Made by a program: the position numbers and the translations under genes. From Candidatus Aminicenantes bacterium (GTDB taxonomy: Bacteria; Acidobacteriota; Aminicenantia; Aminicenantales; UBA4085): DNA of 64,000 nucleotides. The stretch spans positions 905 through 64,904 of the forward strand of contig JAUYDS010000079.1 of the NCBI GenBank assembly GCA_030691735.1, in the 5' to 3' direction. The number at the start of each line of letters is the position of its first letter. Position 1 is the first letter of the stretch. Below the pieces are notes generated by a model. The model worked only from the letters and a program-made list of their open reading frames with translations, was not told the DNA's origin and did no database searches. Of the stretch, positions 2,269-60,198 are shown piece by piece.

Positions 2269-5200
2269 TTGGGATCTCGAGGACTATTACGCGTCGCGGT
2301 GGCGCAAGCCTTGAAAGCGCTTTTCCGCTTGTTCGGCAGCCGCGCTCCGCATCCGGCTGAGAAGCCCCTGCGCGACGAACTGCTGAGCATCGAAAGACTG
2401 GAAGAGAGGGCGAGAGCGCTCGCGGCCGGGTTCACGCTCGACCCGAATCCCCGCCGCGCGGCGCGGAACGTCCTGCCGCGCTTCGAGGACAACGCCCGCG
2501 TCCTTCGCGAGGCATACATCACCATGGCCGACGATGTGCACCGGGGGGAGTTCGTCACCCCCGCGGCGGAATGGCTCCTCGACAACTTCCATCTCGTGGC
2601 GTCCGAGGTCCTCGCCGTGCGCCGGAACCTCCCGCCGGGCTACTATCGCGGGTTGCCCAAACTCGCTTTGCGGGAGCTCGCGGGCCACGCGCGCGTCTAT
2701 GCCCTGGCCGAAGAGATCATCCGCCACAGCGACAGCCGCTTGGACCGCCAGCAGCTGGTGCGCTTCATGAACAGCTTCCAGGCCGTGGCTCCGCTCACGA
2801 TCGGCGAGCTGTGGGCCTGGCCGAGCATGCTGAAGCTGGCCCTCATCGAGAACCTGAGGCGGCTCGCGGAGGAGACGCTCGAGGCCCGCGCGGCCGTCCT
2901 GGCGGCCGACGCCTACGTGGCGCGGGTCGACGACGCCGGGCAGGGGAAGCCGCCGCCGCTGCCAAAGCACCTCCACACCGGTTACGTCCTTCAGCTCCTC
3001 CAACGCCTGCGCGAGCACGGCCCTCGCCTTTCCGCCGTCCGCGCCGCCGTCGATACGCACCTCTCCGCCCAACACATGGCCTCTGAGGACGCGATTCGGA
3101 GCGAGCATCAGCGCCAAGCCGCGGCCCAGGTCTCGGTGGCCAACGTCATCACCAGCCTCCGTCTCTGCTCCGCGCTCGACTGGAGCCAGTCCTTCGAGGC
3201 CGTCAGCCTGGTCGAGCGCGTGTTGCAGCGCGACCCGGCCGGGGCTTATGGGAGCATGGACTTCCTGAGCCGCGACCGCTACCGCCAGGCCGTGGAGGAG
3301 CTATCCGGGCCCACCGGAGAGGCGCAGTTGGACGTGGCTCTGCGAGCTATTGAGCGCGCTCGCCGGGCCGTGGAGAGCGGACAGGCGGCGGATCGCGCCG
3401 CCCACGTCGGCCACTACCTCATCGGCAAGGGCCGCCCCGACCTCGAGACCGACGTCGCCTTTCGACCCCGCTTCGGCCGGCGGGTGCGGCGTTTCGTCTT
3501 CGCCCATGCGACCGCCGTCTACCTCGGATCGATCGGGCTCCTGACGGCCCTCCTGCTCGGCCTCGGGCTCGCCTACCTCCATGATCAGCGCTCATCGCTC
3601 GGGGTTCGGGCCGCAGCGGCGCTGCTCCTGTTGCTTCCGGCCAGCCAGGTGGCGATCGCCTTCGTGCAGCGCCTGGTTGCTCGTTGGGCACCGCCGCAAC
3701 GCCTCCCCCGCCTCGAATTCCCTGCGGGAATCCCCGACAACGCGCGAACCATGGTGGTCGTGCCCACGCTGCTGACGAGCGTGCCCGCCGTGGCCCGCCT
3801 TATCGAGCACATCGAGGTGCTGGCTCTCGGAAACCTCGATCCGCGCATCCACTTCGCGATCCTCAGCGACTTCGTCGACGCCCCCGCGCGCGAGATGCCC
3901 GAGGACGAGCCGATCCTCTCCGCCGCCCGGGCGGGGATCGATGCCCTGAACGCGCACTTCGGTGAAGGGTATACGGACCGGTTCTTCCTGTTCCATCGCC
4001 TGCGCCAGTGGAACCCGGGAGAGAGCGTCTGGATGGGCTGGGAGCGCAAGCGTGGAAAACTCGAGGAATGGAACCGCCTTCTACGCGGGGCCACGGACAC
4101 GAGCTTCTCCGTGCAGGTCGGCGACGTGGGGATCCTCCCCGGCGTGCGCTACTGCCTCACTCTCGACTCCGACACCCGCCTGCCGCGGGACGCCGCGAAG
4201 AAGCTCGTCGGCATCATCGCCCATCCTTTGAACCGCCCCCGCTTCGACGTCCGCCTCGGCCGCGTCACCGAGGGCTATGGGATCCTGCAGCCCCGGGTCA
4301 GCGTGACCATGGCCAGCGCCGCCGGCTCACTCTTCGCCCGCCTCTACGCCGGCCACACCGGAGTCGATCCCTACACCACCGCTGTTTCGGACACCTATCA
4401 GGACCTGTTCGGCGAGGGGATCTTCACGGGCAAGGGGCTCTACGACGTGGACGCCTTCATGGCCGCCCTCGAGGGGCGCGTGCCCGAGAACGCCCTTCTC
4501 TCGCATGACCTCTTCGAAGGGGTCTACGCCCGCACGGCGCTCGTCACGGACGTGGAGGTGGTGGACGACTATCCCGCGAGCGTCCTCGCCCATGCGCGGC
4601 GCCAGCACCGCTGGGTTCGGGGCGATTGGCAGATCCTCCGCTGGCTGTTCCCTTGGGTTCCAACCCGCTCCGGCCTGAAGCGCAACCGGCTGCCCCTCAT
4701 CTCGCGCTGGAAGATCTTCGACAACCTGAGGCGCAGCCTCGTCCCCCCCTCGACCGTCGCCCTGCTCCTTCTGGCCTGGGCGATCCTGCCGGGAAGCCCG
4801 GCGGTCTGGACGGCCGCCATCCTGGCCGCCATGGCCTTTCCCCTTTATCCGCTGCTCCTGGAGGCCGCCAGAGGTCCCAGGCCGCAACAGCCGTGGCTGG
4901 TGTTCCTCCGCGCCGCTTGGAAAGATGGGAAGACCGTGCTCGCTCAGGTATCGCTGCAGCTCACCTTCCTGGCCAGCCAGGCTTACGAGAGGACCCACGC
5001 GATCGTGCTGACCCTCGTCCGTCTCGCGGCGACCCAGCGCCGCCTGCTGGAGTGGGAGACGGCCGCGGCCAGCGAAACCCGAGGGGCCGGCAAGGCAAGG
5101 CGAGCGAGCGCACGGGTGTTTCTGGTAGAGATGATCGCGAGCCCGCTGGTCGCATCAAGCGGCCTCCTCCTGGTCTTGCTGGCGCGCCCGGGCGCGCTCC

Positions 5201-8200
5201 TCACGGCCATCCCGGTCCTGGCTTTGTGGGCGGCCGCGCCGCTCGTCGCATATGCGCTGAGCCGGCCCGTGGTACCGCGACGTGTCGAGCTGGGGGAAGA
5301 GGACCGCTGGTTCCTCCGTCTCATTGCCCGCAACACCTGGCGATACTTCGAGGCGTTCATGGGCCCCGAAGACCACGGCTTGCCCGCGGACAATTTCCAG
5401 GAGACGCCGGAACCCCGGATCTCCCACCGGACGTCGCCCACGAACATCGGCATGGGGCTGCTCGCCACCCTGGCCGCTCACGATCTCGGCTTCATCCGGA
5501 CGGACGAGCTTGCCTCCAGGATCGACGCCACGCTGACCACGATGGAAGGCCTCGAACACTTCGACGGTCACCTGCTCAACTGGTACGACACGCAGAGCCT
5601 GGCGCCGCTCCTGCCGGCTTACGTGTCCACCGTCGACAGCGGCAACCTCGCGGGCGCGCTCATGACCCTGGCGGAAGGGCTGCGCCAGGCGAGCCGGCAA
5701 CCGCCGCCCACGGCCGAGCCGGCAGTCAAGGGACGAGCCTTCGCGGCGGCAGTCAAGGGACGAGCCTTCGCGGCGGAAGTGGACCCCCGGGCAAAGCCCG
5801 GGGCACTCACCCGCGATGTATATACGCGGCTGAGTACGGCGGAAGCGGATCCCCAGACAAAGCCTGCCCTCATTCGCTTCGCGAATGAGGACTGCAAAGC
5901 CCGGGGCCCGGCCGCCGCCCCGGCCGCCGTCGATCTCTCCCAACGCCTCCTTGACCTGGCGGGCCGCGCCGCCCGGTTCGCGGACGGGATGAGCTTCCGG
6001 TTCCTCTACGACCCGCAGCGCCGGATCCTCTCCATCGGCTATCGTCTCGCCGACGCCGAGGGGCCGGGCCGGCTGGATGCTTCCTACTATGACCTCCTGG
6101 CCTCGGAATCGCGGCTGACGAGTTTCATCGGCATCGCCAAGGGCGACCTCCCCGAAACGCACTGGTTCCACCTGGGACGGCTCATCACCGCCGTGGACGG
6201 GACGCCCACCCTCCTGTCTTGGGGCGCCACCCTGTTCGAGTACTTGATGCCGCTCCTCTTCATGAAGAGCTTTCCGGAAACACTCCTCAACCAGACATGC
6301 CGGATGGCCGTGCGGCGGCAGATCGAGTACGCGACGGATCGCGCCGTGCCCTGGGGGATCTCGGAGTCCGCCTACAACCTCGTGGACCGGCACGACAACT
6401 ATCAGTACAAGGCCTTCGGCATCCCCGGCCTCGGCCTGAAGCGCGGCCTGGGCGACGAGCTGGTGGTCGCACCCTACGCCACCGCGCTCGCCGCCGGGCT
6501 CGAACCAACGAAGGCCGCCCGCAATCTGCGGCGCCTGGCCGGGGAAGGTCTCGAAGGCGCCTACGGCTACTACGAGGCCATCGATTACACGCATGGGAAG
6601 ACCGACGAGCCCGAAAGCGCCGGGAGAAGAGCGGGCCTCCCCCGGGGAACGGTGGTGCGTGCCTTCATGGCCCATCACCAGGGGATGACTCTCGTGTCCC
6701 TTGCCAACGTTCTCCTCGGCGATCCGATGGTGAAACGCTTTCATGCCGACCCGCGCGTGCAGGCCACGGAGCTGCTGTTGCAGGAGCAGGTACCGCGCCT
6801 GGTGCCCATCACCCAGCCGCGACCGGTCGAAGAGACCCGCGTGGCCGGCCCGCTGCCCGCGCTGGCCATTCGCCGCTTCTGGTCGCCGCATACGCTGTTC
6901 CCTCATGCGCAGTTCCTGTCCAACGGCAACTACACCGCCGTCGTGACGAATGCGGGAGGGGGCGCCAGCTTCTGTCGAGGCCGCGCGGTCACAAGGCACC
7001 GGGAGGATCCGACCCGCGACCCGGGGAGCCAGTTCCTCTATCTGCGCGACGTGCGGAGCGGCTCGGTGTGGTCAGCAACTTTCCACCCCACCGCCAAGGA
7101 GCCGGAGGAGTACCTGGTCTCGTTCCTCGCGGAGAAGGCGACCTTTCGCCGCCGGGACGACGACATCGCCGTCCAGCTCGACATCGCCGTCTCGAACCAG
7201 GACGACGTTGAAGTGCGGCGCCTGGCGGTGACCAACCACAGCGATCGTCCCCGCGAGATCGAGATCACGAGCTTTGCCGAGATCGTCCTCGCCCCGCCGG
7301 CCGACGACCTGGCCCACCCGGCCTTCGGCAAGCTGTTCGTCGAGACGGAATACCTTCCCGAGAGCGCCGCCCTCCTCTGCCATCGCCGAGCGCGCGCCCC
7401 GGACGAGCCCGGGGCGTGGGCGATTCACGTCCTGAGCCTCGAAGGACGGAAGCAGGGGCCGGTGGAATGGGAGACCGACCGGGCGCGCTTCCTGGGTCGC
7501 GGCCGCGGTCCCGAGAACCCCCAGGCCCTCGACGGACGCTCCCTGTCCGGCACGACCGGGTTCGTACTCGACCCCGTCGTCAGCCTCCGGCAGCGCATTC
7601 GCCTCGCGCCGGGCGGCTTCATTAAGCTGTCTTTCGCCACGGGTATGGCGTCCTCCCGGGAGACGGCCCTGGCTCTCGCCCGGCGCTACCACGAGCCGAG
7701 CGCCGCGGCGCGAACCTTCGCCCTCGCCTTCGCCCATACGCAGAGCGGCCTCCGCCACCTTGGCATCTCGAGCGAACAAGCCTTGCTCTTCGAACGCCTG
7801 GCCTCGCGGGTGCTGTATACCGACGGATCGCTCCGCGCGAGCCCGGAGCTTCTGGCCCGCAACACCCTCGGCCAGGAAGGCCTCTGGCCGCACGGCATCT
7901 CGGGCGATCTCCCCATCCTCCTGGTGCGGGTCGTCGAGGAGGACGACCTGCCGCTGGTGCGCCAGGTCCTGCAGGCGCAGGAGTACTGGCGGCTCAAGGG
8001 GTTGAACGCCGACGTCGTGATCCTCAACGAGCACCCCGTGAGCTATCTCGACGAGATGCACGCGCTGCTCGTGGCCCTCCTCGACAATGGACCCTGGAGG
8101 ACCTGGAAGCACCGGCCCGGCGGGGCTTACCTGCTCCGTGGGGACCGCATGGCTGAAGCCGAGCGCATCCTCCTCGCGGGCGTGGCGCGCGCCGTCCTGA

Positions 8201-10791
8201 GCGGCGAGCGGGGAGATCTGGCCAACCAACTCGACTGGCTCGATCCCGAGTGGCCGGAGCCGGAGGAATTCGCGCCCTCCGCGGAGTCGAGCTCAGCCGC
8301 CGCGTCGCCGGCGCAGGTGGCCGTGCCTCCGCTCGCCCTGGCCAACGGCATGGGCGGCTTCGCCGACGACGGGCGCGACTACGTGGTCGTCCTTGAAGCG
8401 GCCCAGGAGACGCCCCTGCCTTGGGCCAACGTCATCGCCAACCCCGCGTTCGGGACCGTGATCACGGCCTCAGGGTCGGCCTACACCTGGTCGGAGAACA
8501 GCCGCGAGAACCGCCTCACGCCTTTCGCGAACGACCCCGTGACCGACCCCACGGCCGAGGCGCTCTTCATCCGCGACGATGAGACCGGAGAGACCTGGTC
8601 CCCCACGCCGGGCCCGATGCCCCGCACGGGCGGGGACGGTCGCTTCGTGATTCGGCATTCCGCCGGGCTGACTCGTTTCGCTCGCGTAGCGCACGGCCTG
8701 CGCCAAGACCTCGACGTATTCGTAGACGCGAAGGACCCGGTGAAATTCTCACTGCTCACGCTTACGAACGAAAGCGGAAGGGCGCGTCGCCTGAGCGTGT
8801 TCGCCTACAACGAGTGGGTGCTGGGGCCGCCGCGGGCGGGCCAGAGCACGCACGTGGTGACCGAGCTCGACTCCGCGACCGGAGCGGTCCTGGCCAGGAA
8901 TCCCTACAACCAAGAGTTCGCGGGGCGCGTGGCTTTCGCCCACGCGAGCGAAGGGCTGCGCTCGGCAACGGGAGATCGCTTGTCGTTCCTGGGTCGCAAC
9001 GGTTCCCTGGCGCAACCGGCGGCGCTCCGCCGTGAAGCCCTGTCGGGCCGCTTCGGAGCGGGGCTCGATCCCTGCGCCGCGCTGCACGTCTCCGTCACTC
9101 TGATCCCGGGGGAGACGCGCCTCCTTGTGTTCCTGGTTGGGCAGGGGAAGGATGGGAATGAGGCCCGCGAGCTTCTGGGCCGGCATGGTCGCGTGGACGC
9201 CGCGGAAATCGCCCGGGAGGCCGTGCGCCGGAGCTGGGACGGCATCCTCGACACGGTCCAGGTCCGTACGCCGGACGACTCCTTCGATCTGTTGATGAAC
9301 CGCTGGCTGCTCTATCAGGACGTGAGCTGCCGGCTGTGGGCCCGGTCCGCTTACCACCAGCCGAGCGGCGCCTTCGGGTTCCGCGACCAGCTTCAGGACG
9401 TCATGGCTTTGACGCTGGCCCGGCCGGATCTCATCAGAGAACACCTGTTGCGAGCAGCCGGCCGGCAATTCCTCGAAGGCGACGTCCAGCACTGGTGGCA
9501 CGAGCGGAGCGGCCGGGGCACCCGCACGCGCTGTTCCGACGACCTGTTATGGCTTCCCCACGCGGTAGCGCACTACGTCCGGACGACGGGAGACGCGGGC
9601 GTCCTCGATGAGCCGGCGCCCTTCCTGGAGGCCCCGCCGCTCGCCCCGGAAACGCAGGACGCCTACGTTCAGCCCCGCATCTCGACCGAAAAGAGTCCGA
9701 TCTTCGAGCATTGCCTGCGCGCCATCGACCGTGGACTGACCGCGGGCGCCCACGGCCTTCCCCTTATGGGGAGCGGGGACTGGAACGACGGCATGAACCG
9801 CGTGGGACGGGAAGGGCGCGGGGAGAGCGCCTGGGTGGGCTTCTTCCTCCACGTGGTCCTGAGCGAGTTCGCGCCGCTCTGCGAAGCTCGGGGGGACCAG
9901 GCCCGGGCCGAGCGCTACCGCGGCGAGGCCCGCCGGCTCGGCAGCATGCTGGAGCAGACCTGGGACGGCGAGTGGTACCGGCGCGGCTACTACGACGACG
10001 GCAAGCCTCTAGGCTCGGCCCAGAACGACGAGTGCCGGATCGACGCCACCGTACAGTCCTGGGCGGCGCTCTCGGGCGCGGTTCCCGTGCGCTACGCGGA
10101 ACGCGCCATGGACGCTGTCCGCACCCACCTGGTTCGGCGCGGACCTCAGGTCGTACTGCTGCTCACCCCGCCCTTCGACGAATCCATCCAGGATCCGGGG
10201 TACATCAAGGGCTATCCGCCCGGCGTGCGTGAGAACGGCGGCCAATACACCCACGGGGCTCTCTGGGTCGTCATGGCCATGGCCCGGCTGGGCAGCGGCG
10301 ACGAGGCGGTGGAGCTCTTCCACATGCTCAATCCCGTCAACCATACCAGGACCGCGGCCGGTGTCGGGCGCTACATGGCCGAGCCCTACGTCATCGCCGG
10401 AGACGTCCACGCCGACCCGGCACACGCCGGGCGTGGCGGCTGGACGTGGTACACCGGCTCCGCGGGCTTGATGTACCGCGCGGGCCTCGAGAGCATCCTC
10501 GGGCTCCGGCGCCGGGGCTCGACCTTCGAGATGGACCCCTGCATCCCGTCATCCTGGCTTGACTACGCGATCGTCTGGCGCTTCGGCCGGACGCGCTACG
10601 AGATCGCGGTCTCGAACCCGGAGCGCCGCTGCCGAGGGATCGCGGAGGCGGAACTGGATGGCGCGCCGGTCGACCCCCGCTCCATCCCTCTCGCCGATGA
10701 CGGCGGCACGCACCAAGTCCGGCTGGTGCTGGGAGACCCAAAGCGGCCCGTCCCGCCCGTTGCCGACCCGGGTGCCATCGCTTCTGCTTGA
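2269..10791 (+). CDS. ndvB: Cyclic beta-1,2-glucan synthase (Cgs/NdvB/ChvB family; GT84 domain plus C-terminal GH94 phosphorylase-like domain); the start is a TTG
   Basis: The 2840-aa product has TM clusters around aa 400-470 and 830-1000. A GT-A signature DSDT (nt about 4165) and [10 protein letters not shown] flank the glycosyltransferase domain. The C-terminal region is GH94-like ([27 protein letters not shown]). The size and architecture match Brucella/Rhizobium Cgs. Confidence 0.8.
5723..5930 (+). repeat. Composite, nested copy of the GC-rich palindromic mini-element, inserted in-frame in cgs (copy A)
   Basis: It contains a 27-bp tandem duplication of CAGTCAAGGGACGAGCCTTCGCGGCGG, the core hairpin GACCCCCGGGCAAAGCCCGGGG, a second hairpin module and a repeated GCCCGGGGCCCGGCCGCC tail. 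It is translated as [28 protein letters not shown]. Confidence 0.8.
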
Positions 10792-13405: not shown

Positions 13406-13479
13406 GAGGGGCTCGTTAAACAGGAGGAGAACGAAGGGGAACAGGGCGGGAAGGATCGTCCGGCCGTTCTTCTGACGAC

Positions 13480-13655
13480 GCGCGGCTGGCCGAGGCCTTC
13501 GCTCGGGAGGTCGTGGGATTTCTTGTCCGCCGGGAGCTTTTGGGTCCGGAGTGGGCCGAGCGCATTCTCTTCTGGCGACACACGGGGTTCTCGGTCCACA
13601 GCCGAGTCCGGGCTAAGACCAAGCCGGAGGCCGAGGAGCGGGCGGAATATTTATG
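13480..13655 (+). pseudogene. Possible C-terminal remnant of an IS91-family (Y2, Transposase_32-like) transposase
   Basis: A 58-codon frame ends ...EWAERILFWRHTGFSVHSRVRAKTKPEAEERAEYL*. The W-R-H-S/T-G-F-x-V-H motif recalls IS91/IS801 transposase C-termini. There is no upstream continuation. Confidence 0.25.
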
Positions 13656-13669
13656 ATCGTTGCTGTCGA

Positions 13670-13704
13670 TTTTAGAGCGGAAAAGAGAAGTCTTGCGTCT
13701 TTCG
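13670..13704 (+). repeat. 35-bp repeat TTTTAGAGCGGAAAAGAGAAGTCTTGCGTCTTTCG (copy 1), followed by the hairpin TTCGGAGGG-ACG-CCCTCCGAA
   Basis: It is near-identical (two to three mismatches) to an inverted copy at 26731..26765. Confidence 0.7.
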
Positions 13705-16666: not shown

Positions 16667-16767
16667 GTCAAGGGACGAGCCTTCGGCTCGCCACTCGCCC
16701 GTGGCTTTTAACCACGGGCGAGTACGGCGGAAAGGACCCCCGGGCAAGCCCGGGGCCCCGGCCGCCG
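16667..16767 (+). repeat. GC-rich palindromic mini-element, long form with the extra hairpin module (copy B), intergenic
   Basis: The sequence is GTCAAGGGACGAGCCTTCG + GCTCGCCACTCGCCCGTGGCTTTTAACCACGGGCGAGTA + CGGCGGAAAGGACCCCCGGGCAAGCCCGGGGCCCCGGCCGCCG. Confidence 0.8.
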
Positions 16768-20245: not shown

Positions 20246-20320
20246 GACGTGGCTAATCCCCCCTTCTCCCCCCTTTAGTAAAGGGGGGGAAGCGAGCCCC
20301 CCTTTTCTAAAGGGGGGATT
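20246..20320. terminator. GC-rich tandem-hairpin repeat element (copy 1) acting as a bidirectional terminator between convergent genes
   Basis: GACGTGGCTAATCCCCCCTTCTCCCCCCTTTAGTAAAGGGGGGGAAGCGAGCCCCCCTTTTCTAAAGGGGGGATT shares its first 33 nt with the copy at 23289. It abuts the stop of the purF-like gene. Confidence 0.65.
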
Positions 20321-21725
20321 AATCCGGCTCGACGCCGTCCCAGCAATAGGTGCAAAGCCGCTCTTTAGGCAGGCCGATGGCCGCCACGAGATCCTCGAGG
20401 TGCTGGTACTTGAGGGTCGTCAGGTTCAATCTCTGCCGGATCCTTTCTTCCATGGCCTTGTACTTGTCCGTGTCTTCTCTGGTGTAATCCGTCAGGTCGG
20501 CCGGGTATTCGCCTTCGATCTCGCGGATGGCCCGCCGGGCGGCCAGGTCCATCTCCGACCGGGAGACCGAAAAATTCAGGAACTTGCAGCCGAAGACGAG
20601 CGGCGGGCAGGCCGGCCGCATATGGACCTCCAGGGCTCCGCAATCGTAGAGCCGCTGGATCGTGTCCTGGAGCTGGGTTCCCCGGACGATGGAATCCTCG
20701 CAGAAGAGGAACTTCTTGCCCTTGATCAGGTCGCCGATGGGGATGAGCTTCATCCGGGCGACGAGGTCCCGGACGCCCTGGCTCTGGGGCATGAAGCTGC
20801 GGGCCCACGTGGGCGTATATTTGACGAACGGCCGCTTGAACGGGACGCCGGATTCGGCCGCGTAGCCTAGGCCGTGACCGACACCCGAGTCCGGGATCCC
20901 GGCCACGAAATCGATCGGGACCGGGTTGTGCTTGGCCAGGAACGCGCCGCAGCGGTTCCGCGCGTCCTCGACGTTGATGCCTTCGTAGCTCGAGGCCGGG
21001 TAGCCGTAGTAGACCCAGAGGAAGGCGCAGATCTGAAGCTTGTCGCCCGGCGCCTGTTTCTGCTCGCACCCCTCGGGGGAAATGAAGAGGATCTCTCCGG
21101 GTCCCAGATATTTTTCGACCTCGAAGCCGAGGTTGGGGAAGGCGCACGTCTCCGACGTCACGGCGAAATTGCCCGCTTTCTTACCGAGGACGATCGGTGT
21201 CCGGCCCCATTTATCGCGGCCGGCGTACAGGCCCTTTTCGGTCAGGATGAGGACGGAGCAGGAGCCCTCGATGGAATCTTGGAGGTTCCGGATCCCCGCT
21301 TCGAAGCTTTCCTCCTGGTCGATGAGCGTCGCGGCCAGCTCGGTCGGATTGATCCCGCCGGCGCCGATCTCGGTGAAGTGCAGACCTCTCTTCCGGAAAA
21401 GGTCCTCGGACAGCGCCGCGGCGTTCTTGATGGCGCCGACGGTGACGATGGCGTAATCCCCGAGATGGGAACGGATGAGAAGGGGTTGGTCGTCGAAATC
21501 GCTGATCACCCCGATGCCGGCCCAGGAATGCATCCGGTCGAGGTCCGGATCGAACTTGGAGCGGAACTGGGCGTTCTCGATGTTGTGGATGACGCGGACA
21601 AAACCGTCCTTTTGGCGGACGGCCAGCCCGCCCCGCTTCGTCCCGAGATGGGAATGGTAGTCCGTGCCGTAGAACAGGTCGGCGATACAATCGTCCCAGG
21701 AAGCGATCCCGAAAAATCCTCCCAT
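20319..21725 (-). CDS. Amidophosphoribosyltransferase (PurF) homologue lacking the N-terminal catalytic Cys (the N-terminus is MGGFFGIAS); [4Fe-4S]-type C-terminus
   Basis: The product is collinear with PurF. The PRPP loop FLFCEDSIVRGTQL matches (cf. LLVDDSIVRGTT), and the C-terminus carries CTYCW. An ATG start with a GAGGGGGA RBS is present. Cys1 is replaced by Gly. Confidence 0.75.
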   Translation of the reverse strand: MGGFFGIASWDDCIADLFYGTDYHSHLGTKRGGLAVRQKDGFVRVIHNIENAQFRSKFDPDLDRMHSWAGIGVISDFDDQPLLIRSHLGDYAIVTVGAIKNAAALSEDLFRKRGLHFTEIGAGGINPTELAATLIDQEESFEAGIRNLQDSIEGSCSVLILTEKGLYAGRDKWGRTPIVLGKKAGNFAVTSETCAFPNLGFEVEKYLGPGEILFISPEGCEQKQAPGDKLQICAFLWVYYGYPASSYEGINVEDARNRCGAFLAKHNPVPIDFVAGIPDSGVGHGLGYAAESGVPFKRPFVKYTPTWARSFMPQSQGVRDLVARMKLIPIGDLIKGKKFLFCEDSIVRGTQLQDTIQRLYDCGALEVHMRPACPPLVFGCKFLNFSVSRSEMDLAARRAIREIEGEYPADLTDYTREDTDKYKAMEERIRQRLNLTTLKYQHLEDLVAAIGLPKERLCTYCWDGVEPD

Positions 21726-21747: not shown

Positions 21748-23178
21748 CTAACGGCTCTCGGGCTCCGCGTGAACGAGCACCCGGACTAGGCCCGGGATCC
21801 TCTCTTTCAAGCGTTCCTCGATGCGGGTAGACACATCATGAACTTGGATGATCGATAGCTGCTTCTCGAAGTGACAGTGCAGTGAGACCGAATAATTGTC
21901 GGCGTGGCGCCGGACCATGACGTTGTGGCAGCGGGAAGCGCCGGCGACCTTATTGGTGAGCTTTTTGACCTTGTCCACGAGGGCCGACTCCCGGGACGTC
22001 ACATCGACGCCTTCGCCGATGCCCGTGCCGCGGGATTCGATGTGGGTGTTGATCTGGGTGATCTCGGGCATGTCGTCCCTGAGGTCTTTTTCGATATGCG
22101 TCGCCAAGTCGTGGGCTTGCTGCAGGGACAGATGGTCGTCCACCTCGAGGTGGAGGTCGACCAAGACTCGATCGCGGTCCTCGTGCAGGCTGATGTTGTG
22201 GACGCTCATCTGGTCCCGGTAGGCGATGGCCCGGATCCGCTTGGCCTTGGTCTCGCGCTCGACCTCGCGTGGGTCGGTGTGAATGACGACGTCGGCGCCG
22301 GGAGCGACGCTCTGCACGCAGGCCTCCACCGATTCGGCGATGGCGTGGGTCCGTTCGAAGGACAGGTTGCGGTCCACGTCCACGGCCATGTCCACGAAGA
22401 CGCTCGGGCCGGACCGCCGGAGCCGGACCTGGCCGACGCTCAACACGCCTTCGATGGCACCGGCGGCCTCGGAGATCTTTTGGGCCAGGCCGTCCGGGGC
22501 CCGGTCGAGGAGGACGTCCACGGTCCGTTTGCCGAGCTTATAGCTTATAAACAGGACGATGAAGGCGACGCCCAGGGCGGAGACCGCGTCCGCCTTTTGC
22601 AAAAGCTCCGCCTGGCGGTGAAAGACGTGTTTACCGAGCCAGACGAGGAGCAGACCGCCGATGACCACGCTCGAGCTCCACACGTCCGTCGAAAAGTGGA
22701 GGGCATCGGCTTCCAAGGCTTGGCTGTGATGCTTCCGGGCGGCCCGGTAGAGCATCCGGGACCGGCTCACGTCGACGCCGATGGAGATGACCATGACCAA
22801 GAACGCCCAGAGGCTGGGATCGATCTCGATGGTCTGAAAGCCGATGCGGCGGACCGCCTCGTAGATGATCCAGGCGCAGGTGACGAAGAGCAGGACCGTC
22901 TCGACCAGGGCGGAGAAGTTCTCGATCTTACCGTGGCCGTAGGTGTGATCATGATCGGCGGGCTTATCCGAGACGCGCACGGCCAGGAAAGTGATGAAAG
23001 CGGCGACCAGGTCCAGGCCGGAGTGGGCCGCTTCGGCCAGGATGCCCAAGCTTCCCGTGAGGATCCCGACGACCAGCTTCATGGAGGTGAGGAAGAGGGC
23101 GGCGAAGACGGAATTGCCGGCGGCGGCTTTCTTGTCATGCGCGGCGGACAAACTCTGCGGGGACGCTTCAGATGTCAT
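21748..23178 (-). CDS. Cation diffusion facilitator (CDF) family metal efflux transporter with duplicated cytoplasmic C-terminal domains
   Basis: The product has 6 TM helices with the metal-site motifs HSGLDLV and HDHTYGHGK, followed by two ZT-dimer-like domains. Confidence 0.8.
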   Translation of the reverse strand: MTSEASPQSLSAAHDKKAAAGNSVFAALFLTSMKLVVGILTGSLGILAEAAHSGLDLVAAFITFLAVRVSDKPADHDHTYGHGKIENFSALVETVLLFVTCAWIIYEAVRRIGFQTIEIDPSLWAFLVMVISIGVDVSRSRMLYRAARKHHSQALEADALHFSTDVWSSSVVIGGLLLVWLGKHVFHRQAELLQKADAVSALGVAFIVLFISYKLGKRTVDVLLDRAPDGLAQKISEAAGAIEGVLSVGQVRLRRSGPSVFVDMAVDVDRNLSFERTHAIAESVEACVQSVAPGADVVIHTDPREVERETKAKRIRAIAYRDQMSVHNISLHEDRDRVLVDLHLEVDDHLSLQQAHDLATHIEKDLRDDMPEITQINTHIESRGTGIGEGVDVTSRESALVDKVKKLTNKVAGASRCHNVMVRRHADNYSVSLHCHFEKQLSIIQVHDVSTRIEERLKERIPGLVRVLVHAEPESR

Positions 23179-23288: not shown

Positions 23289-23344
23289 GACGTGGCTAAT
23301 CCCCCCTTCTCCCCCCTTTATTAAAGGGGGGAGAAGGGGGGATT
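23289..23344. terminator. 47-bp perfect palindrome AATCCCCCCTTCTCCCCCCTTTA-T-TAAAGGGGGGAGAAGGGGGGATT preceded by the shared GACGTGGCT flank (copy 2)
   Basis: It lies downstream of the stop of the minus-strand M16 peptidase gene (23440). The stem is about 23 bp and perfect. Confidence 0.7.
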
Positions 23345-23439
23345 AGCATGGAGGTTGCCACGCTCCCTTCGGTCGCTCGCAACGACAAGAAAATTAACTA
23401 CTTCCCCTTTCTATCGGCAATTTCGGGGAGCGACACGGG

Positions 23440-26730: not shown

Positions 26731-26765
26731 CGAAAGACGCAAGACTTCTTTTTTCCGCTCTAAAA
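26731..26765 (-). repeat. 35-bp repeat (copy 2, inverted relative to copy 1 at 13670)
   Basis: CGAAAGACGCAAGACTTCTTTTTTCCGCTCTAAAA is the reverse complement of the 13670..13704 sequence. Confidence 0.7.
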
Positions 26766-26774
26766 ACGATCGGA

Positions 26775-47352: not shown

Positions 47353-47458
47353 GTCAAGGGACGAGCCTTCGGCTCGCCACTCGCCCGTGGCTTGTATCCA
47401 CGGGCGAGTACGGCGGAAGTGGACCCCCGGGCAATGCCCGGGGCCCCGGCCGCCGTGG
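47353..47458 (+). repeat. GC-rich palindromic mini-element, long form (copy C), filling the thiolase/Mo-hydroxylase intergenic gap
   Basis: It is near-identical to copy B, including the CACTCGCCCGTGG...CCACGGGCGAGTA hairpin module. Confidence 0.8.
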
Positions 47459-47468
47459 AGAAATAAAA

Positions 47469-48371
47469 TTGTCGCTCGACCGGGAGGCCGACATCGCATT
47501 CCACGCCCCCCAGACTCTGGCCGAAGCGCTCCGGCTCTTGGACGAGCTTGAGAACGCCCGGATCTTGGCCGGCGGGACAGACCTTCTGGTCGAGCTTCGA
47601 GAGGGCCGGGCAGAGGCCCGTAACCTCATCTCGATCCAAGACGTTGACGAGCTTAAAGGGATCAGAGAAAAGGGCGGCCGGGTCGAGATCGGGGCCTTGG
47701 CCACTCCCCGGGAGATAGCCGGCAACTCCCTGATCAATCGGCATAACCCGGCTTTGGCCCAGGCGGCCGGCGGGATGGCCTCTTCCCATATCCGGTCGAT
47801 GGCCACGATCGGAGGAAACATCGTCAGCGCGGTTCCCTCCGCGGACCTCCCTCCAGCCTTGATAGCGGCCGAGGCCGCTGTCCGGCTCGTGAGCTCGGCC
47901 GGAATCCGCGAAGTATCTCTTTCGGACTTTTTCACGAGTCCGAGGTGCACTGTCTGCGGAAGCGCGGAGATCCTTGCCGCGGCGATTTTCCCTCCGCCAC
48001 CGCCCGGGACAGGAATCTCCTGGGAGAGGTTTTCACTCCGCGAGTCCAACGCCCTGGCCGTCGCCGCCGTCGCGGCCTGCCTGACCATCCGGAAAGGAAC
48101 GATCGCCCGGGCCGCGGTCGTACTCGGAGCCGTGGCCCCGACCCCTCTGGCGGCGGTTAAAACCGCGGAATTTCTCTCCGGCCAAAAGCCTTCTACCGGC
48201 CTTTTTGCCGAAGCCGCTTCCCTGGCCGGGGAGGAATGCCGGCCGATTTCCGACATCCGAGGATCGGCCTGGTTTCGGAAGGAGATCGTCACGGTTCTGA
48301 CCCGGCGGGCCCTGGCCGGAGCCTTGGCTCGAGCCCAGGTGAACCAATCGGGAAGGAACGGCCCGGCTTGA
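47469..48371 (+). CDS. FAD-binding (CoxM/HcrB-like) subunit of a xanthine-dehydrogenase-family molybdenum hydroxylase; TTG start
   Basis: The FAD_binding_5 motifs AGGTDLLVEL and GGNIVSAVPSADL, plus the CO dehydrogenase flavoprotein C-domain, are present. Confidence 0.75.
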   Translation: MSLDREADIAFHAPQTLAEALRLLDELENARILAGGTDLLVELREGRAEARNLISIQDVDELKGIREKGGRVEIGALATPREIAGNSLINRHNPALAQAAGGMASSHIRSMATIGGNIVSAVPSADLPPALIAAEAAVRLVSSAGIREVSLSDFFTSPRCTVCGSAEILAAAIFPPPPPGTGISWERFSLRESNALAVAAVAACLTIRKGTIARAAVVLGAVAPTPLAAVKTAEFLSGQKPSTGLFAEAASLAGEECRPISDIRGSAWFRKEIVTVLTRRALAGALARAQVNQSGRNGPA

Positions 48372-55529: not shown

Positions 55530-55597
55530 GTCAAGGGACGAGCCTTCGCGGCGGAAGTGGACCCCCGGGCAAAGCCCGGGGCCCCGGCCGCCGTGGC
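55530..55597 (+). repeat. GC-rich palindromic mini-element, short form (copy D), upstream of the ATPase gene
   Basis: GTCAAGGGACGAGCCTTCGCGGCGGAAGTGGACCCCCGGGCAAAGCCCGGGGCCCCGGCCGCCGTGG. Confidence 0.8.
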
Positions 55598-55634
55598 CCC
55601 GGCCGCCGCTGCCCCGGATGGACTGGAGGAAGGC

Positions 55635-57289: not shown

Positions 57290-57577
57290 ATGCTGGCCCA
57301 CTACGGATATAAGGACGGCTCGGGAGAGTATTTCATCGTCGTCGACACGGACAAGTGCGACGGATGCGGCCGCTGCGTCTCCGCCTGTCCCTACGGAGTT
57401 TTCGAAATCGGCGAGGACGAAAACGACCCCTTCCGCGAGACGGTCGTGGTCAAAGTCTCCGAATCCCACCGTAAGAAAATCAAATACAGCTGCGCGCCCT
57501 GCAAACCCGTCTCCGGAAAAAAATCCCTGCCCTGCCTCGAAAGCTGTGCTCCGGGCGCGATCGGTCACTCCTGGTGA
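57290..57577 (+). CDS. 2x[4Fe-4S] ferredoxin of the benzoyl-CoA reductase type (Fdx/BzdM-like)
   Basis: The 95-aa product has the Cys patterns CDGCGRCVSACP and the atypical CAPC-x10-C-x3-C. Confidence 0.75.
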   Translation: MLAHYGYKDGSGEYFIVVDTDKCDGCGRCVSACPYGVFEIGEDENDPFRETVVVKVSESHRKKIKYSCAPCKPVSGKKSLPCLESCAPGAIGHSW

Positions 57578-60198
57578 GAGGACAGAACCAAGTGGCCTCC
57601 CGATCGCCGGGATCGGGCCGGAAATTCCTCCTGGACGGGAAGGCCGTCGAGGCCGCGGAGGGCCGGACCATCCTGCAGGCCGCTCTCGCCGCCGGGATCT
57701 ATATTCCCCATCTCTGCCATCATCCGGACCTGCCGCCCTTCGAGACGATTCCCCCCCTGGAGACATGCTACCGGGGTTCCGAGGTTTTCCGTTCGGCAGG
57801 GCGCGGTCACACTTATACGGGCTGCGGGCTCTGCTTGGTCAAGATCTCCGGTCGCGAGGAGCCGGTCCTCTCCTGCACGCACGTCGCCGAGGACGGGATC
57901 GAGGTTGTGACCTCGACCCCGGAGATCGCGTCCGCTCGTCAGAAAAAACTGGCCGCGCTGATGATCCGCCATCCGCACGCTTGTCTGACCTGCGCCCAGC
58001 GGGAAGGATGCAGCTTGACCCAGTGCTCGTCCAACGTCCCCGAGGCGGAGAGGTGCTGTCCCCGGTTCGATCATTGTGAGCTGAGAAGCCTGGCCGAGTA
58101 CGTCGGCCTCAGCCAGGACCTTTCCCGATATCGTTTCCGCGGTGAGGTCGCGGAAATGCAAGGGCCCCTCTTTATCCGGGACTACAACCTCTGCGTCGGC
58201 TGCCTGCGGTGCGTCCGGGTCTGCGAATCCGTGATCGGCGCCAAGGCCTTGGGGTACGTATCGGCCGCGGACGGAGAGATTATGGTGGGCGCCTCGAAGC
58301 CTTCCTGGGATGAGGCGGGGTGCCGGTCCTGCGGCGCGTGCGTCGAGGTTTGCCCGACCGGCGCGCTGCGCGATAAAAACCTCAAGCCCGGCGACCGGAA
58401 AGCGTCTCTAATCGCCTGCGTCTCCGGCTGCCCCTTGGCCATGGATGTCCCCTCCTATCTGAACTTCATCGCTCAGGGCAGACCGGCAGAAGCGGCGGCC
58501 GTCATCCGGCGGAGCGTTCCACTCGCCCTGACGCTTGGATACATCTGCTCCCATCCCTGCATGACCGAATGCCGCCGGGGGAAGATCGATGAGTCCATCG
58601 CCATCTGCGAGCTCAAGAGGTTCGCCCTGGAGCAAGCAGACTCGCCGGTCAAGGGACGAGCCTTCGCGACGGAAGTGGACCCCCGGGCAAAGCCCGGGGC
58701 CCCGGCCGCCGTGGAAAAGGCGGAACGCAAGCCGACGGGAAAGAAGGTCGCCGTCATCGGAGGGGGACCGGCCGGCCTCGTGGCCGCTTCTTATCTGGCG
58801 AATGGCGGCCACTCCATCAAGGTCTTTGAAGCGAGTTCGGAGCCGGGAGGAATGCTGCGCTGGGCGATCCCCGAATACCGGCTCCCGCGGAGCGTCGTCG
58901 CTGGAGAGATCGAACTTGTCAAGGCTCAGGGGGTCGAGATTCTGACCGGGGCACGGGTTGACAGAGAGACGTTCCTCAGGGATTTCGGCCCCGGCTCCTG
59001 GGACGCGGTTTTTCTCGCGGTCGGCGCTCAGGAGAGCAGAGGGATCGACATCGAAGGTCAAGACCTGGAGGAAGTCGGTAAGGGGGTGGAGTTTCTCCGG
59101 GAGGCCAAAGCGGGAACGATCGAGAAAATCAGCGGAAGAGTCGTGGTCATCGGCGGGGGAAACGTCGCCCTGGACGCGGCCATGACGGCCCTCCGGCTCG
59201 GAGCTTCCACTGTCGAGCTGGCCTGCTTAGAAAGCCGGGACGAGATGCCGGCGTTCGCTTGGGATGTCCGGGAAGCCGAGGAGGACGGGGTAGTGCTGAA
59301 TCCAGGTTGGGGGCCCTCCCGGATCGTCGGACGGGAAGGCCGGGCCGCCGCGGTCGAGCTTATCGGTTGTGTTTCGGTCTTCGATGAACAAGGAAATTTC
59401 CGCCCGAAATTCGATCCCGCTCGACGGAAGACTCTCCCGGCCGATCGCGTCGTCTTGGCCGTCGGGCAGCGGCCCGATCTTTCGTTTCTTCCTCCGGATC
59501 TGGGAGTCCGGTTGACGAAGGCGGGGACAATCCAGGTCAGCCCCCTGAATCTCCAAACGAGCGTGCCTTGGATCTTCGCCGGAGGCGAGGTTACTCTCGG
59601 ACCGTCCTCGGCCGTGGAATCCATGGCCTTGGGACGGCAGGCCGCCTCGTCGATCGATCGTTTCTTGGGAGGTGAGGGGCTGGGCTCGGCGCCGAACGGG
59701 GCCGGGAAGGCCGGCCGGGGAGACCTGTGGCTGGGCCATGATCCCGGTTTCGGCTCGAGGCGCAGAGTGCCCAGCCGCCGCCTCCTTCGAGCGGAACGCC
59801 TGAAATCTTTCGACCTCGTCCAGGGAAGCTATGAGCCGGACGAGGCCCGCCGGGAAGCAGGCCGGTGCTTGAGGTGCGAACTCAGGTTCGCCCTTTCGCC
59901 CGTCTGCCTTCCTCCTGAAAAATGGATAGAGTTCCGCCTGGATTCGATGTCCGAGGTTCCCGAAGTGGAGGGCGTTTTTCAGCTTTCAGATGAGCGGAGA
60001 AACGTGATTTTCATCGCCGGAACGCCCAACCTCAGGCGGACCCTTCTCGAACACCTGTCCGCCGGTTCGGAAGCCCATTATTTTCTCTATGAAAAGAACC
60101 CGATGTTCACCAAAAGGGAAAGCGAATGGATTCAGCAGTTCCTTCAGAAACACGGCCGCCTTCCGCCGAAGAACGAAGAGGTCGACGAGTTGTTCTAG
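57574..60198 (+). CDS. Fused Fe-S / FAD-NAD(P)H oxidoreductase (NuoG-like 2Fe-2S and 4Fe-4S N-terminus, GltD/SudA-like C-terminus); candidate ferredoxin-regenerating BzdV-like enzyme; GTG start
   Basis: The N-terminus has 2Fe-2S fer2_4 (CHHPDL...CGLCLV) and several CxxCxxCxxxCP motifs. The C-terminus has KKVAVIGGGPAGLVAASYLA and a pyridine-nucleotide disulfide oxidoreductase fold. The linker contains repeat copy E in-frame. Confidence 0.7.
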   Translation: MRGQNQVASRSPGSGRKFLLDGKAVEAAEGRTILQAALAAGIYIPHLCHHPDLPPFETIPPLETCYRGSEVFRSAGRGHTYTGCGLCLVKISGREEPVLSCTHVAEDGIEVVTSTPEIASARQKKLAALMIRHPHACLTCAQREGCSLTQCSSNVPEAERCCPRFDHCELRSLAEYVGLSQDLSRYRFRGEVAEMQGPLFIRDYNLCVGCLRCVRVCESVIGAKALGYVSAADGEIMVGASKPSWDEAGCRSCGACVEVCPTGALRDKNLKPGDRKASLIACVSGCPLAMDVPSYLNFIAQGRPAEAAAVIRRSVPLALTLGYICSHPCMTECRRGKIDESIAICELKRFALEQADSPVKGRAFATEVDPRAKPGAPAAVEKAERKPTGKKVAVIGGGPAGLVAASYLANGGHSIKVFEASSEPGGMLRWAIPEYRLPRSVVAGEIELVKAQGVEILTGARVDRETFLRDFGPGSWDAVFLAVGAQESRGIDIEGQDLEEVGKGVEFLREAKAGTIEKISGRVVVIGGGNVALDAAMTALRLGASTVELACLESRDEMPAFAWDVREAEEDGVVLNPGWGPSRIVGREGRAAAVELIGCVSVFDEQGNFRPKFDPARRKTLPADRVVLAVGQRPDLSFLPPDLGVRLTKAGTIQVSPLNLQTSVPWIFAGGEVTLGPSSAVESMALGRQAASSIDRFLGGEGLGSAPNGAGKAGRGDLWLGHDPGFGSRRRVPSRRLLRAERLKSFDLVQGSYEPDEARREAGRCLRCELRFALSPVCLPPEKWIEFRLDSMSEVPEVEGVFQLSDERRNVIFIAGTPNLRRTLLEHLSAGSEAHYFLYEKNPMFTKRESEWIQQFLQKHGRLPPKNEEVDELF
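58648..58713 (+). repeat. GC-rich palindromic mini-element, short form (copy E), in-frame inside the BzdV-like gene
   Basis: GTCAAGGGACGAGCCTTCGCGACGGAAGTGGACCCCCGGGCAAAGCCCGGGGCCCCGGCCGCCGTGG is translated as [22 protein letters not shown]. Confidence 0.8.

Follow-up and report, generated by a model that had tools for sequence, protein, structure and literature searches.

An in-frame composite copy of a dispersed palindromic repeat in a cyclic glucan synthase gene of Candidatus Aminicenantes, as read from genome comparison

The window, that is, the whole stretch of 64,000 nucleotides that was analysed, carries a cgs gene for a cyclic beta-1,2-glucan synthase (Table 1). Pfam matches along its product fall to Glyco_trans_2_3 (aa 630-853), DUF3131 (aa 1019-1113), Glycoamylase (aa 1273-1482), the GH94 supersandwich domain and the GH94 catalytic domain (aa 2323-2745), and its PDB relatives are the Agrobacterium Cgs structures 8rf0 and 8rf9 together with 8wy1 (E = 1e-106 to 1e-116). 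A GT domain, a glucoamylase-like cyclization domain and a GH94 phosphorylase follow each other in one polypeptide of about 2800 aa, which is the architecture of Cgs. As an earlier note on this DNA had stated, the giant ORF stays open (2269..10791, across 2840 aa), including the stretch where a repeat element lies within it.

The same note placed this insert between the membrane GT domain and the GH94 domain, as a linker. According to Pfam and the PDB relatives, the site is not a plain linker but a hypervariable loop within the central glucoamylase-like cyclization domain, between DUF3131 and Glycoamylase, and it coincides with the gap separating the two aligned blocks of 8wy1 and 8rf0. Among about 120 protein homologues, close relatives have a loop of 2-30 aa at this point, whereas distant ones, which carry a helical subdomain there, have 110-220 aa. 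A homologous protein segment encoded by unrelated DNA would have spoken against an insertion; the homologues show unrelated loops instead. In the AlphaFold model the insert has pLDDT values of 47-61 and stands between confident helices, with values of 93-98 in the flanks. The insert marks a loop of the Cgs cyclization domain that is tolerant of large insertions.

The extent of the insert was determined by comparison with L085, a metagenome contig from which the segment is absent and whose flanks are 98.3-99.1% identical to those of cgs over 4.6 kb. Its empty site reads ...GAGCCGGCA^GTCGATCTC... (also written GAGCCGGCA^GTCGATCTCTCC). Alignment of the filled with the empty site, GGCA[GTCAAGGG...GGCCGCC]GTCGAT versus GGCA^GTCGAT, leaves only GT(C) as a common part, and because GTC stands at both junctions the boundary of the insert can slide by up to 3 nt. 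The insert had been placed at 5723-5930, with 205-213 bp and about 70 aa; it is indeed there, but the empty site gives its exact limits as 5725-5928, 204 bp and 68 aa. The segment is also absent from nine further cgs relatives at 95-85% nucleotide identity (L102, L097, L106, L095, L088/L086, L096/L098/L001), so that the proposed alignment with Cgs/NdvB orthologues yields ten of ten sequences, from 98% down to 85% identity, without it. L074, a genome representative that is 97.5% identical, was left out of the empty-site comparison, as its locus stops 750 nt before the site. Since the filled and empty alleles are 98-99% identical, the event is recent and its junction is fixed to the base. Judged by these alleles, the results show that the segment at 5725-5928 is a recent insertion of a composite dispersed-repeat copy into cgs. 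The core of the earlier reading, a composite, nested repeat element inserted in frame, therefore holds: the segment is absent in orthologues, its modules recur elsewhere and the ORF is open.

The 27-mer at the 5' end of the insert, GCAGTCAAGGGACGAGCCTTCGCGGCG, was also detected by TRF (period 27, 2.3 copies, 97%), and the two perfect units at 5722-5748 and 5749-5775 each translate to the AVKGRAFAA given for them before. The host flank GGCA of the L085 empty site is repeated at 5748-5751; as the repeat unit spans the host/element junction and holds host bases, the duplication arose in situ, after insertion. The second hairpin module was recovered as CACTCACCCGCGATGTATATACGCGGCTGAGTA at 5804-5836 (module b), and recurs at the same position in L015, L030, L035, L037 and L079; module c is found without interruption, as CCCCAGACAAAGCCTGGGG, in these five loci and in L031. 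The palindrome arms of module D, CCTCATTCGC and GCGAATGAGG, are 100% complementary, but they enclose a loop of 3 nt and not the 4-nt TTCG. Module D is found again, in both orientations, in the loop of the C hairpin (L008, twice, L027, L049 and L065), and L031 has it in a hairpin that stands alone. The second tail is likewise present, GCAAAGCCCGGGGC recurring at 5894-5907, and the first tail, with 1 nt less than its counterpart in other composite copies, makes up for a module D of 37 nt and not 36 nt. At 5725-5933, the cgs copy has module A at its 5' end, a C-type hairpin, the CCCCGGCCGCC tail and GTSGA after the tail, as do the four other window copies and more than 80 copies elsewhere, and each of its hairpin modules recurs in other copies. 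Of the view that these elements nest or duplicate locally, the part that stands is the 27-bp duplication, which is local; the combination of a second hairpin and a second core is instead a recurrent architecture, shared with the five loci that carry module b.

Table 1. Features of the window: the host gene, the parts of its repeat insert and the other copies of the family.
Feature	Position	Strand	Remarks
cgs, host gene, cyclic beta-1,2-glucan synthase (Cgs/NdvB-type)	2269..10791	+	uninterrupted ORF, 2840 aa; ORF list, Pfam, PDB relatives
Perfect 27-bp tandem duplication	5722..5775 (5722-5748 + 5749-5775)	+	unit = host GCA + module A + CGGCGG
Whole composite element inserted in cgs	5725..5928	+	204 bp = 68 codons, Cgs residues 1153-1220; empty site in L085
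Module A (GTCAAGGGACGAGCCTTCG), conserved 5' end of the family	5752..5770, duplicate 5725-5743	+	exact 19-mer
Module C, 5' part: outer-stem arm CGGCGG, GTGG head, REP-like hairpin CCCCGGGC-AAA-GCCCGGGG	5771..5803	+	fold
Module b, hairpin CACTCACCCGCG-ATGTATAT-ACGCGGCTGAGTA	5804..5836	+	variant of the long-form B hairpin; stem differs, still complementary
Module c, 5' part (CGGCGGAAGCGGATCCCCAGACAAAGCCTG)	5837..5866	+	second C-type unit, hairpin split by module D
Module D, nested mini-element, 37 nt	5867..5903	+	perfect 10-bp palindrome (5868-5877 / 5881-5890), repeated GCAAAGCC
Doubled tail, GGGCCCGGCCGCCG then CCCCGGCCGCC	5904..5928	+	comparison with L015, L030
Target motif GTCGA	5929..5933	+	single at the empty site, kept 3' of the insert
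Long-form copy, three hairpins	16667..16766	+	intergenic, between two minus-strand ORFs
Long-form copy, 102 nt	47353..47454	+	intergenic; followed by GTGGAG (Shine-Dalgarno-like) and a TTG start codon
Short-form copy, duplicated 15-nt tail	55530..55607	+	intergenic, upstream of ATG at 55635
Short-form copy, 63 nt = 21 codons	58648..58710	+	in frame in an 874-aa Fe-S/FAD oxidoreductase ORF (57574..60198); frame as in cgs

The 64-kb window holds five copies of the family, the cgs copy included; the 19-mer of module A is exact at 5 places, and the 34-nt core is found at 4 places with at most 3 mismatches, against 0.00 expected from 100 shuffles. The exact 19-mer occurs at at least 78 genome loci, and among the matches listed nearly all are from Candidatus Aminicenantes (MAGs). 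The family is small, non-coding and rich in hairpins, and its copies are modular: module A forms the 5' end, between one and five hairpins (B, C, b, c, nested D) come next, and the tail closes the element. The canonical forms measure 63, 102 and about 141-180 nt, and among 88 classed copies the architectures AaBCt (34), ACt (14), AaBCbct (4) and ACbct (1) were counted. Most copies are intergenic; by a codon model, ORFs contain about 8 of 86. With respect to flanking genes, the element shows a mild preference for the antisense orientation (31 vs 14).

Folded as DNA, the long form gives three adjacent hairpins (z = -6.2 for the 47353 copy) and the composite reaches z = -3.9; the repeat also folds stably as RNA. 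The mean identity among 43 long-form copies is 86% and double changes occur at only 2 of 28 pairs, a level of conservation too high for covariation, so the structural support comes from the folding z-scores and from variant stems (b versus B, swapped C hairpins). Copies are strongly conserved between species, including those at orthologous intergenic sites. At orthologous loci, long and short forms differ by exactly 39 nt and hairpins are swapped; given this exact difference, some of the apparent nesting may reflect recombination or gene conversion between copies and not transposition. At gathering thresholds, Rfam matched tRNA only over the whole window and nothing at the repeat, and a permissive scan of 5600-6050 returned two sub-threshold chance matches and no family. 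Promoter and terminator scans around the cgs copy and the 47353 copy gave no signal, the 40-nt core had zero exact matches in viral contigs, and our literature search found nothing joining Aminicenantes with REP, MITE or palindromic repeats.

Besides cgs, in-frame copies occur in several other protein domains: ROK glucokinase, GH130, 3-keto-disaccharide hydrolase, pseudouridine synthase, methyltransferase and YegS-type kinase. In the 874-aa oxidoreductase, the copy falls in the linker that joins Fer4_20 (aa 281-356) to Pyr_redox_2 (aa 390-685). This linker measures 34 aa, and in 105 of 120 homologues it has 13-16 aa; the comparison is one of linker length and not of a DNA empty site, as the best database orthologue is only 55% identical. 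The element is used in frames +0, +1 and +2 by 46, 15 and 8 copies, and GTSRA in coding DNA falls in the corresponding phases 1462, 232 and 114 times. Frame-specific selection on the peptide was considered and set aside, since the frames follow the codon phase of the target motif. In cgs, the element would simply be translated as a 68-aa surface loop, probably a flexible one; it appears to be tolerated because it lies in phase (GTC encodes Val), has a length divisible by three and a stop-free frame, and falls in a dispensable loop, whose length among homologues runs from about 5 to about 200 aa. We infer that the effect of the insert is neutral or slightly deleterious, and not an adaptation.

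The 3' flanks of 60 copies agree on GTSGA (G 59, T 49, G/C 56, G 54, A 45) and the 5' flanks show no conservation; the target stays on one side, the empty site holding a single GTCGA. The ends of the element, GTCAAGGGAC and GGCCGCC, are not complementary, so that there are no terminal inverted repeats, and no target-site duplication was seen. In L022 and L053, a long form lies within a short form, with the junction precisely at CGGCGGAA^GTGGA, and an IS91-like transposase provides a further pair of an empty (P0149) and a filled site (P0129). In module C, the GTGG head stands 1 nt 5' of a stem of 8-9 bp with a 3-nt loop (GTGG-A-CCCCCGGGC-AAA-GCCCGGGGG). Nesting exactly 5' of a GTGGA head, the lack of terminal repeats and target duplications, and the GTSGA motif together point to a site-specific mobilisation, probably through single strands (HUH/RAYT-like). 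The element may be moved in trans by an HUH-type single-strand DNA enzyme, hairpin-recognising and site-specific, which would be RAYT/TnpA-Y1-like, less likely IS91-like, and would cut 5' of GT(G/C)GA. Motif screens for Y1/RAYT proteins in about 0.8 Mb of fetched loci and the window found no cognate gene and no parent IS with TnpA; the sole transposase relatives seen are IS91-like (Y2) genes, present as remnants (13474-13680 in the window, and adjoining cgs in L085), some of them interrupted by the element. A lagging-strand single-strand mechanism might produce an association with GC skew; over 56 loci, in what is a weak test on 8-kb pieces, element-oriented GC skew was zero within error.

An ancestral 68-aa segment of this Cgs lineage, lost by deletion from the relatives, might be suggested by the highly variable length of the loop among homologues, where deletions clearly occur. 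Ten relatives at graded distances, one of them at 98-99% identity, nevertheless all lack the segment with a clean junction, and its DNA is near-identical to intergenic copies and to copies in unrelated genes of many genomes; empty sites and dispersed copies effectively refute this explanation, to which we give next to no weight. Scarcely more credible is an assembly artefact, by which a chimeric join or a collapsed or expanded repeat would have put the element or the 27-bp duplication in cgs. Repeats can mislead assemblers and the window appears to be metagenome-derived, but both junctions fall within cgs, the phase is kept and the position is precisely that of the usual GTSGA target, the insert is a multiple of three within the 2840-aa open frame, and independent assemblies hold other in-frame copies. 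Moreover, ordinary reads could probably span both the 204-bp composite and its 54-bp tandem part. It is also improbable, if less markedly so, that the insert has been co-opted, either as a functional loop of the cyclization domain (for instance in glucan ring size or partner binding) or as an mRNA structure tuning cgs translation or stability. The strong conservation of copies between species, at orthologous intergenic sites too, the stable RNA fold, the helical subdomain of 110-220 aa at the same point in distant homologues and the 1-nt shortening that preserves the frame beside the 37-nt module D are in its favour; however, a relative at 98-99% identity and all others manage without the insert, its model is of low confidence, no Rfam family and no promoter-like or terminator-like signal accompanies it, and the same sequence in many unrelated proteins, in several frames, fits passive tolerance.

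The family may also have spread otherwise, through an IS91-type Y2 rolling-circle transposase, a hairpin-targeting recombinase of the IS110/IS1111 type, or recombination and gene conversion without a dedicated enzyme, which we regard as unlikely, though less so than the three preceding alternatives. IS91-type elements likewise use a fixed short target without duplication, and IS91-like remnants lie in the window and next to the L085 cgs; the differences of exactly 39 nt and the swapping of hairpins at orthologous loci speak for exchange in situ, and the hairpin loop is the target of module D. On the other hand, the IS91-like genes seen are either degraded or carry the element themselves, at three positions; a head of GTGG plus hairpin is what marks REP/TnpA-Y1 systems; and gene conversion by itself cannot bring a new copy into a site that had no repeat, such as the one in cgs. 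Taken together, the evidence favours, with a probability of about 85%, an explanation that combines the recent composite insertion with a presumed HUH-type mobilisation and a presumed passive tolerance.

A more far-reaching suggestion, which we offer tentatively as possible but not probable, is that the family is adapted to life inside genes and is not a REP-like repeat that lands there occasionally. The lengths of master copies (63, 102 and 141/180 nt) and of each added module (+39, +78, +36 and +27) are multiples of three, four of six reading frames are stop-free in the consensus long form and five of six in the short form, and in these genomes, which are GC-rich, the target GT(G/C)GA most often reads as the codons for Val and Asp/Glu, all of which fits such an adaptation. 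If this were true, a site-specific HUH-type element could colonise coding DNA across an uncultured phylum and give dozens of enzyme families new linkers and loops, among them a transposase by which the element may itself be carried. For annotation, inserts of 21-68 aa in proteins from Aminicenantes MAGs can be repeat DNA and not domains, and gene callers extend ORFs through intergenic copies. Given the clear GTSGA motif and a head of REP type, the mobilising enzyme can be addressed by experiment.

Classical MITEs carry terminal inverted repeats and target duplications, and the Aminicenantes element, unlike them, has neither. It does resemble the enterobacterial ERIC/RU elements and MITEs in being small, non-autonomous and sometimes intragenic with an open frame, these being small non-autonomous repeats that sometimes lie within genes with open frames (PMC2759123, PMC10969869). 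With the PATEs, miniature elements derived from IS200/IS605 and linked to its peel-and-paste mechanism (PMC6006769), it shares the lack of terminal inverted repeats and target duplications, a one-sided fixed motif of 4-5 nt and hairpins near the ends; it differs from them in that the short form has no 5' hairpin and in showing no strand-skew signal in the weak test on 56 loci. Neither a parent IS with matching ends nor a TnpA was found among the fetched loci.

The likeness to REPs and BIMEs is closer in build. By rule, REPs have GT[AG]G at a distance of 0-2 nt on the 5' side of a hairpin whose stem is 7-20 bp and whose loop is 2-5 nt, and a Y1 class with atypical REP-like repeats has already been reported from Acidobacteria (PMC6006769); module C conforms to this rule. 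Like REPs and BIMEs, the Aminicenantes family is high-copy and mostly extragenic and has a G+C-rich hairpin with a GTGG head, and, as in BIMEs, its hairpin units form mosaics in which variant stems differ yet remain complementary. Unlike REPINs and BIMEs, its units run head-to-tail and are not inverted doublets, only module D occurring in both orientations; unlike REPs, it has a non-palindromic conserved 5' module A and about one in ten copies is intragenic. A RAYT gene, as REPtrons have, did not turn up when the window and about 0.8 Mb of fetched loci were screened for motifs. In behaviour the family recalls the RPEs, small dispersed palindromic repeats of which many lie in frame in unrelated genes, keeping the ORF and placing the peptide at tolerant positions (PMC10969869): the Aminicenantes repeat, too, is in frame with the ORF open in cgs, in the 874-aa oxidoreductase and in several Pfam-verified enzymes. 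Its host, however, belongs to a free-living, uncultured phylum and is not an obligate intracellular Rickettsia, its sequence probably differs, and it is mostly intergenic and modular with a defined GTSGA target; as the host genomes are labelled Aminicenantes, we claim a likeness to RPEs in behaviour and not membership by sequence. The Aminicenantes family is new but of a kind already known, REP/BIME-like in build and RPE-like in behaviour, and the RPE-like colonisation of genes in frame by selfish palindromic repeats is now shown outside Rickettsia, in a free-living uncultured lineage.

We scanned metagenome contigs with the 20-nt stretch of the cyclic beta-1,2-glucan synthase gene (cgs) lying just upstream of the site, and recovered contig L085. 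Its identity to the window is 98.3% across 3.6 kb upstream of the site and 98.6-99.1% across about 0.9 kb downstream of it. At the site itself L085 reads GCCGAGCCGGCA^GTCGATCTCTCCCAACGCC, and the window carries 204 additional bases at the caret. Nine further relatives are also empty, namely L102 (95% identity), L097 (93.5%), L106 (93%), L095 (91.5%), L088 and L086 (90%), and L096, L098 and L001 (85%), so that the alignment check proposed in an earlier note on this DNA found the segment absent from relatives ranging from 98-99% down to 85%. Judged from these alignments, we regard it as secure that the 204-bp segment is an insertion, and it is a recent one. Synteny between L085 (positions 1-1215) and the window is lost just upstream of cgs, where the end of a solute-binding protein gene in L085 is joined to a frameshifted IS91-like gene. 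Vicinamibacteria is the label on the closest cgs relatives at about 85% identity, and several element-rich MAGs carry the label 'uncultured Eubacteriales'; these records are probably mislabelled or mis-binned, because the element and other genes point to Aminicenantes.

Compared with the empty site of L085, the insert occupies 5725-5928 and encodes 68 codons, residues 1153-1220 of Cgs; since both junctions carry GTC, the boundary is ambiguous by up to 3 nt. The limits in the earlier note were 5723-5930, about 205-213 bp and about 70 aa. Within 5700-5940, the array that it described is present in every part: the 27-mer GCAGTCAAGGGACGAGCCTTCGCGGCG in two perfect tandem copies (period 27, 2.3 copies by TRF), the hairpin module, the palindrome, and GCAAAGCCCGGGGC, found at 5791 and again at 5894. 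The whole array lies within a single open frame, 2269..10791, and the giant 2840-aa ORF does stay open across it. The architecture of this copy is A-C-b-c-tail (141 nt) plus the nested mini-element D (37 nt, offset by a tail 1 nt shorter) and the 27-bp duplication, and the composite folds with z = -3.9 against shuffles. Every hairpin module in it is a recurring part of the family, and the earlier note's reading of a composite repeat element inserted in frame is supported.

Features of the cgs copy and the further element copies in the window
Feature	Position	Strand	Context
27-mer, first tandem copy	5722-5748		cgs copy
27-mer, second tandem copy	5749-5775		cgs copy
Hairpin module	5804-5836		cgs copy
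Perfect 10-bp palindrome, 3-nt loop	arms 5868-5877 and 5881-5890		cgs copy
Long form	16667-16766	+	intergenic
Long form, 102 nt	47353-47454	+	intergenic
Short form with duplicated tail	55530-55607	+	intergenic
Short form, 63 nt	58648-58710	+	in frame in 874-aa ORF

Besides the cgs copy the window holds four others, all on the plus strand. A 34-nt core has 4 matches in the window at up to 3 mismatches against 0.00 expected from shuffles, and hence is not due to chance. An exact search for the 19-nt 5' module (A), with one genome per species, returned at least 78 loci on both strands, nearly all in Candidatus Aminicenantes/Aminicenantia MAGs. That the cgs copy belongs to a dispersed repeat family is secure. 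Among 88 copies, the commonest arrangement is A-a-B-C-tail, with three hairpins (34 copies), followed by A-C-tail (14), A-a-B-C-b-c-tail (4) and A-C-b-c-tail (1, locus L015); module D (36-37 nt) is nested in the C-hairpin loop of several copies, in either orientation. Folding of the long form gives three hairpins side by side (z = -6.2 against shuffles). Between co-directional genes at loci L002-L079, antisense copies of the element outnumber sense ones about two to one (31 vs 14). The element often adjoins the following gene's Shine-Dalgarno sequence, and such a sequence can also be formed by the element's own 3' end together with the target (GTGGAG), for instance at 47455-47471. In L032 and L059, from two species, an orthologous copy has, immediately on its 3' side, the 3' end of an apparent tRNA gene on the opposite strand.

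The local duplication claimed for the cgs copy is borne out, and arose in place: the unit is CAGTCAAGGGACGAGCCTTCGCGGCGG, whose first bases, CA (or GGCA with CGG microhomology), are host flank seen in L085, which places the duplication after entry of the element into cgs. The superficially similar L022 and L053 are true nested insertions, in which a long form interrupts a short form at CGGCGGAA^GTGGA and the remainder of the outer copy continues after the inner one. The copy at 55530 has its tail tandemly repeated at 55576-55617 (period 15, 2.8 copies), a second case of local slippage in these elements. At two pairs of orthologous loci from different species (L056/L066 and L011/L069), one has the long form and the other the short form at the same insertion site; the length gap is exactly 39 nt, and the C hairpins are distinct but still able to pair. 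These loci show module turnover in situ, so recombination between copies also reshapes the elements.

The earlier note had placed the insert in a linker between the membrane GT domain and GH94. Pfam instead puts it inside the central cyclization domain, between the DUF3131 (aa 1019-1113) and Glycoamylase (aa 1273-1482) matches. Solved structures align with a 500-aa query in blocks 7-145 and 235-499 (Cgs aa 1007-1145 and 1235-1499), and between the blocks Agrobacterium Cgs (8rf9) has a segment of about 100 aa and the Thermoanaerobacter cyclization domain (8wy1) one of about 165 aa. Across 119 homologues, the loop at the site has 2-30 aa in close relatives, several consisting solely of one 17-aa stretch, and 110-220 aa in distant ones. 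An AlphaFold model from 40 sequences gives pLDDT 93-98 for the flanking helices against 47-61 across the insert. The element entered in phase, GTC being a codon for Val; its length is divisible by three, and the frame in which it is read contains no stop. We infer that these features let cgs tolerate the insert, and that the insert is neutral for Cgs.

In-frame residence is general in the family; under a codon-usage model, about 8 of 86 sampled copies lie inside ORFs. In the 874-aa Fe-S/FAD oxidoreductase a short form, in the same frame as the cgs copy, separates Fer4_20 from the Rossmann domain; the linker there measures 34 aa, whereas 105 of 120 homologues have 13-16 aa. With a six-frame peptide query we found 169 predicted proteins, and the frames used by the best 120 of these are +0 (46), -1 (34), -0 (17), +1 (15), +2 (8) and -2 (0); many of them are ORFs whose N or C terminus is extended across an intergenic copy. 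Pfam profiles span the insert in ROK glucokinases, a GH130 phosphorylase, a 3-keto-disaccharide hydrolase, a pseudouridine synthase and a methyltransferase, and a YegS-type kinase has it between its two matched domains. In five metagenome IS91-family transposases (P0123, P0124, P0144, P0129, P0149) the element occurs in frame, at three positions in all, one of them common to diverged copies; the transposase may carry the repeat along while spreading. In coding DNA of these genomes GTSRA has 1462 sites in phase 0, 232 in phase 2 and 114 in phase 1, which matches the order of element frames +0, +1 and +2. Target-motif phase, and not selection on the encoded peptide, thus determines the frame. 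The canonical short form is 63 nt in 13 of 14 copies and the long form 102 nt in 23 of 34; length is divisible by three in 42 of 60 copies overall, as is every added module, a count that is not a clean statistic because the copies descend from few masters. Even so, the family may be adapted to living within coding DNA, although we consider this less likely than not.

The five bases 3' of the tail are conserved in 60 copies (G 59, T 49, G/C 56, G 54, A 45), and the eight bases 5' of module A show no conservation across them; the element has neither terminal inverted repeats nor a target duplication. The empty cgs site holds one GTCGA, nested copies are positioned exactly 5' of the host copy's GTGGA head, and an IS91-like transposase follows the same insertion rule at the protein level (empty SPEWAERI, filled SPE-[element]-W-AERI). 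Module C forms a hairpin (8-9-bp stem, 3-nt loop) with GTGG 1 base from its foot, which agrees with the operational REP definition used in PMC6006769, where a class of Y1 HUH proteins including Acidobacteria is described with high-copy REP-like repeats. The mobiliser that we propose is a HUH enzyme: guided by the hairpin, it would cut single strands 5' of GT(G/C)GA and move the element in trans. Against this count the failure to find such a gene in about 0.8 Mb of DNA from the loci and the lack of a GC-skew signal, and also the recombination between copies (39-nt differences, swapped C hairpins).

Other repeats occur in the window. A second, unrelated palindromic family, GACGTGGCTAATCCCCCCTTCTCCCCCCTTTA(G/T)TAAAGGGGGG..., has two copies, at 20246-20318 and 23289-23347, the latter containing a perfect 26-nt palindrome (23295-23347); between the copies lie two minus-strand ORFs (20319..21725 and 21748..23178). 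An IS91-like (Y2) transposase remnant (13474-13680) ends at one arm (13666-13704) of a 39-nt inverted repeat (95%), whose other arm (26731-26769) is 13 kb away; the arms may be an old mobile-element boundary. Paralogous 243-nt segments at 37159-37401, 42660-42902 and 46991-47233 (62-70% identity, 4-5.5 kb apart), with further pairs at 36784/46616 and 37948/43463, suggest triplicated gene clusters.

Our literature search found no paper linking Aminicenantes to such repeats, and Rfam has no matching family. Having neither terminal inverted repeats nor target-site duplication, the element falls outside the definition of a classical MITE, and it differs from a REPIN in having no inverted-doublet arrangement. 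In build it is nearest to REP/BIME repeats and IS200/IS605-type miniature elements. Its nearest counterparts in behaviour are the palindromic elements of Rickettsia, whose in-frame insertions occur in many genes (PMC10969869).
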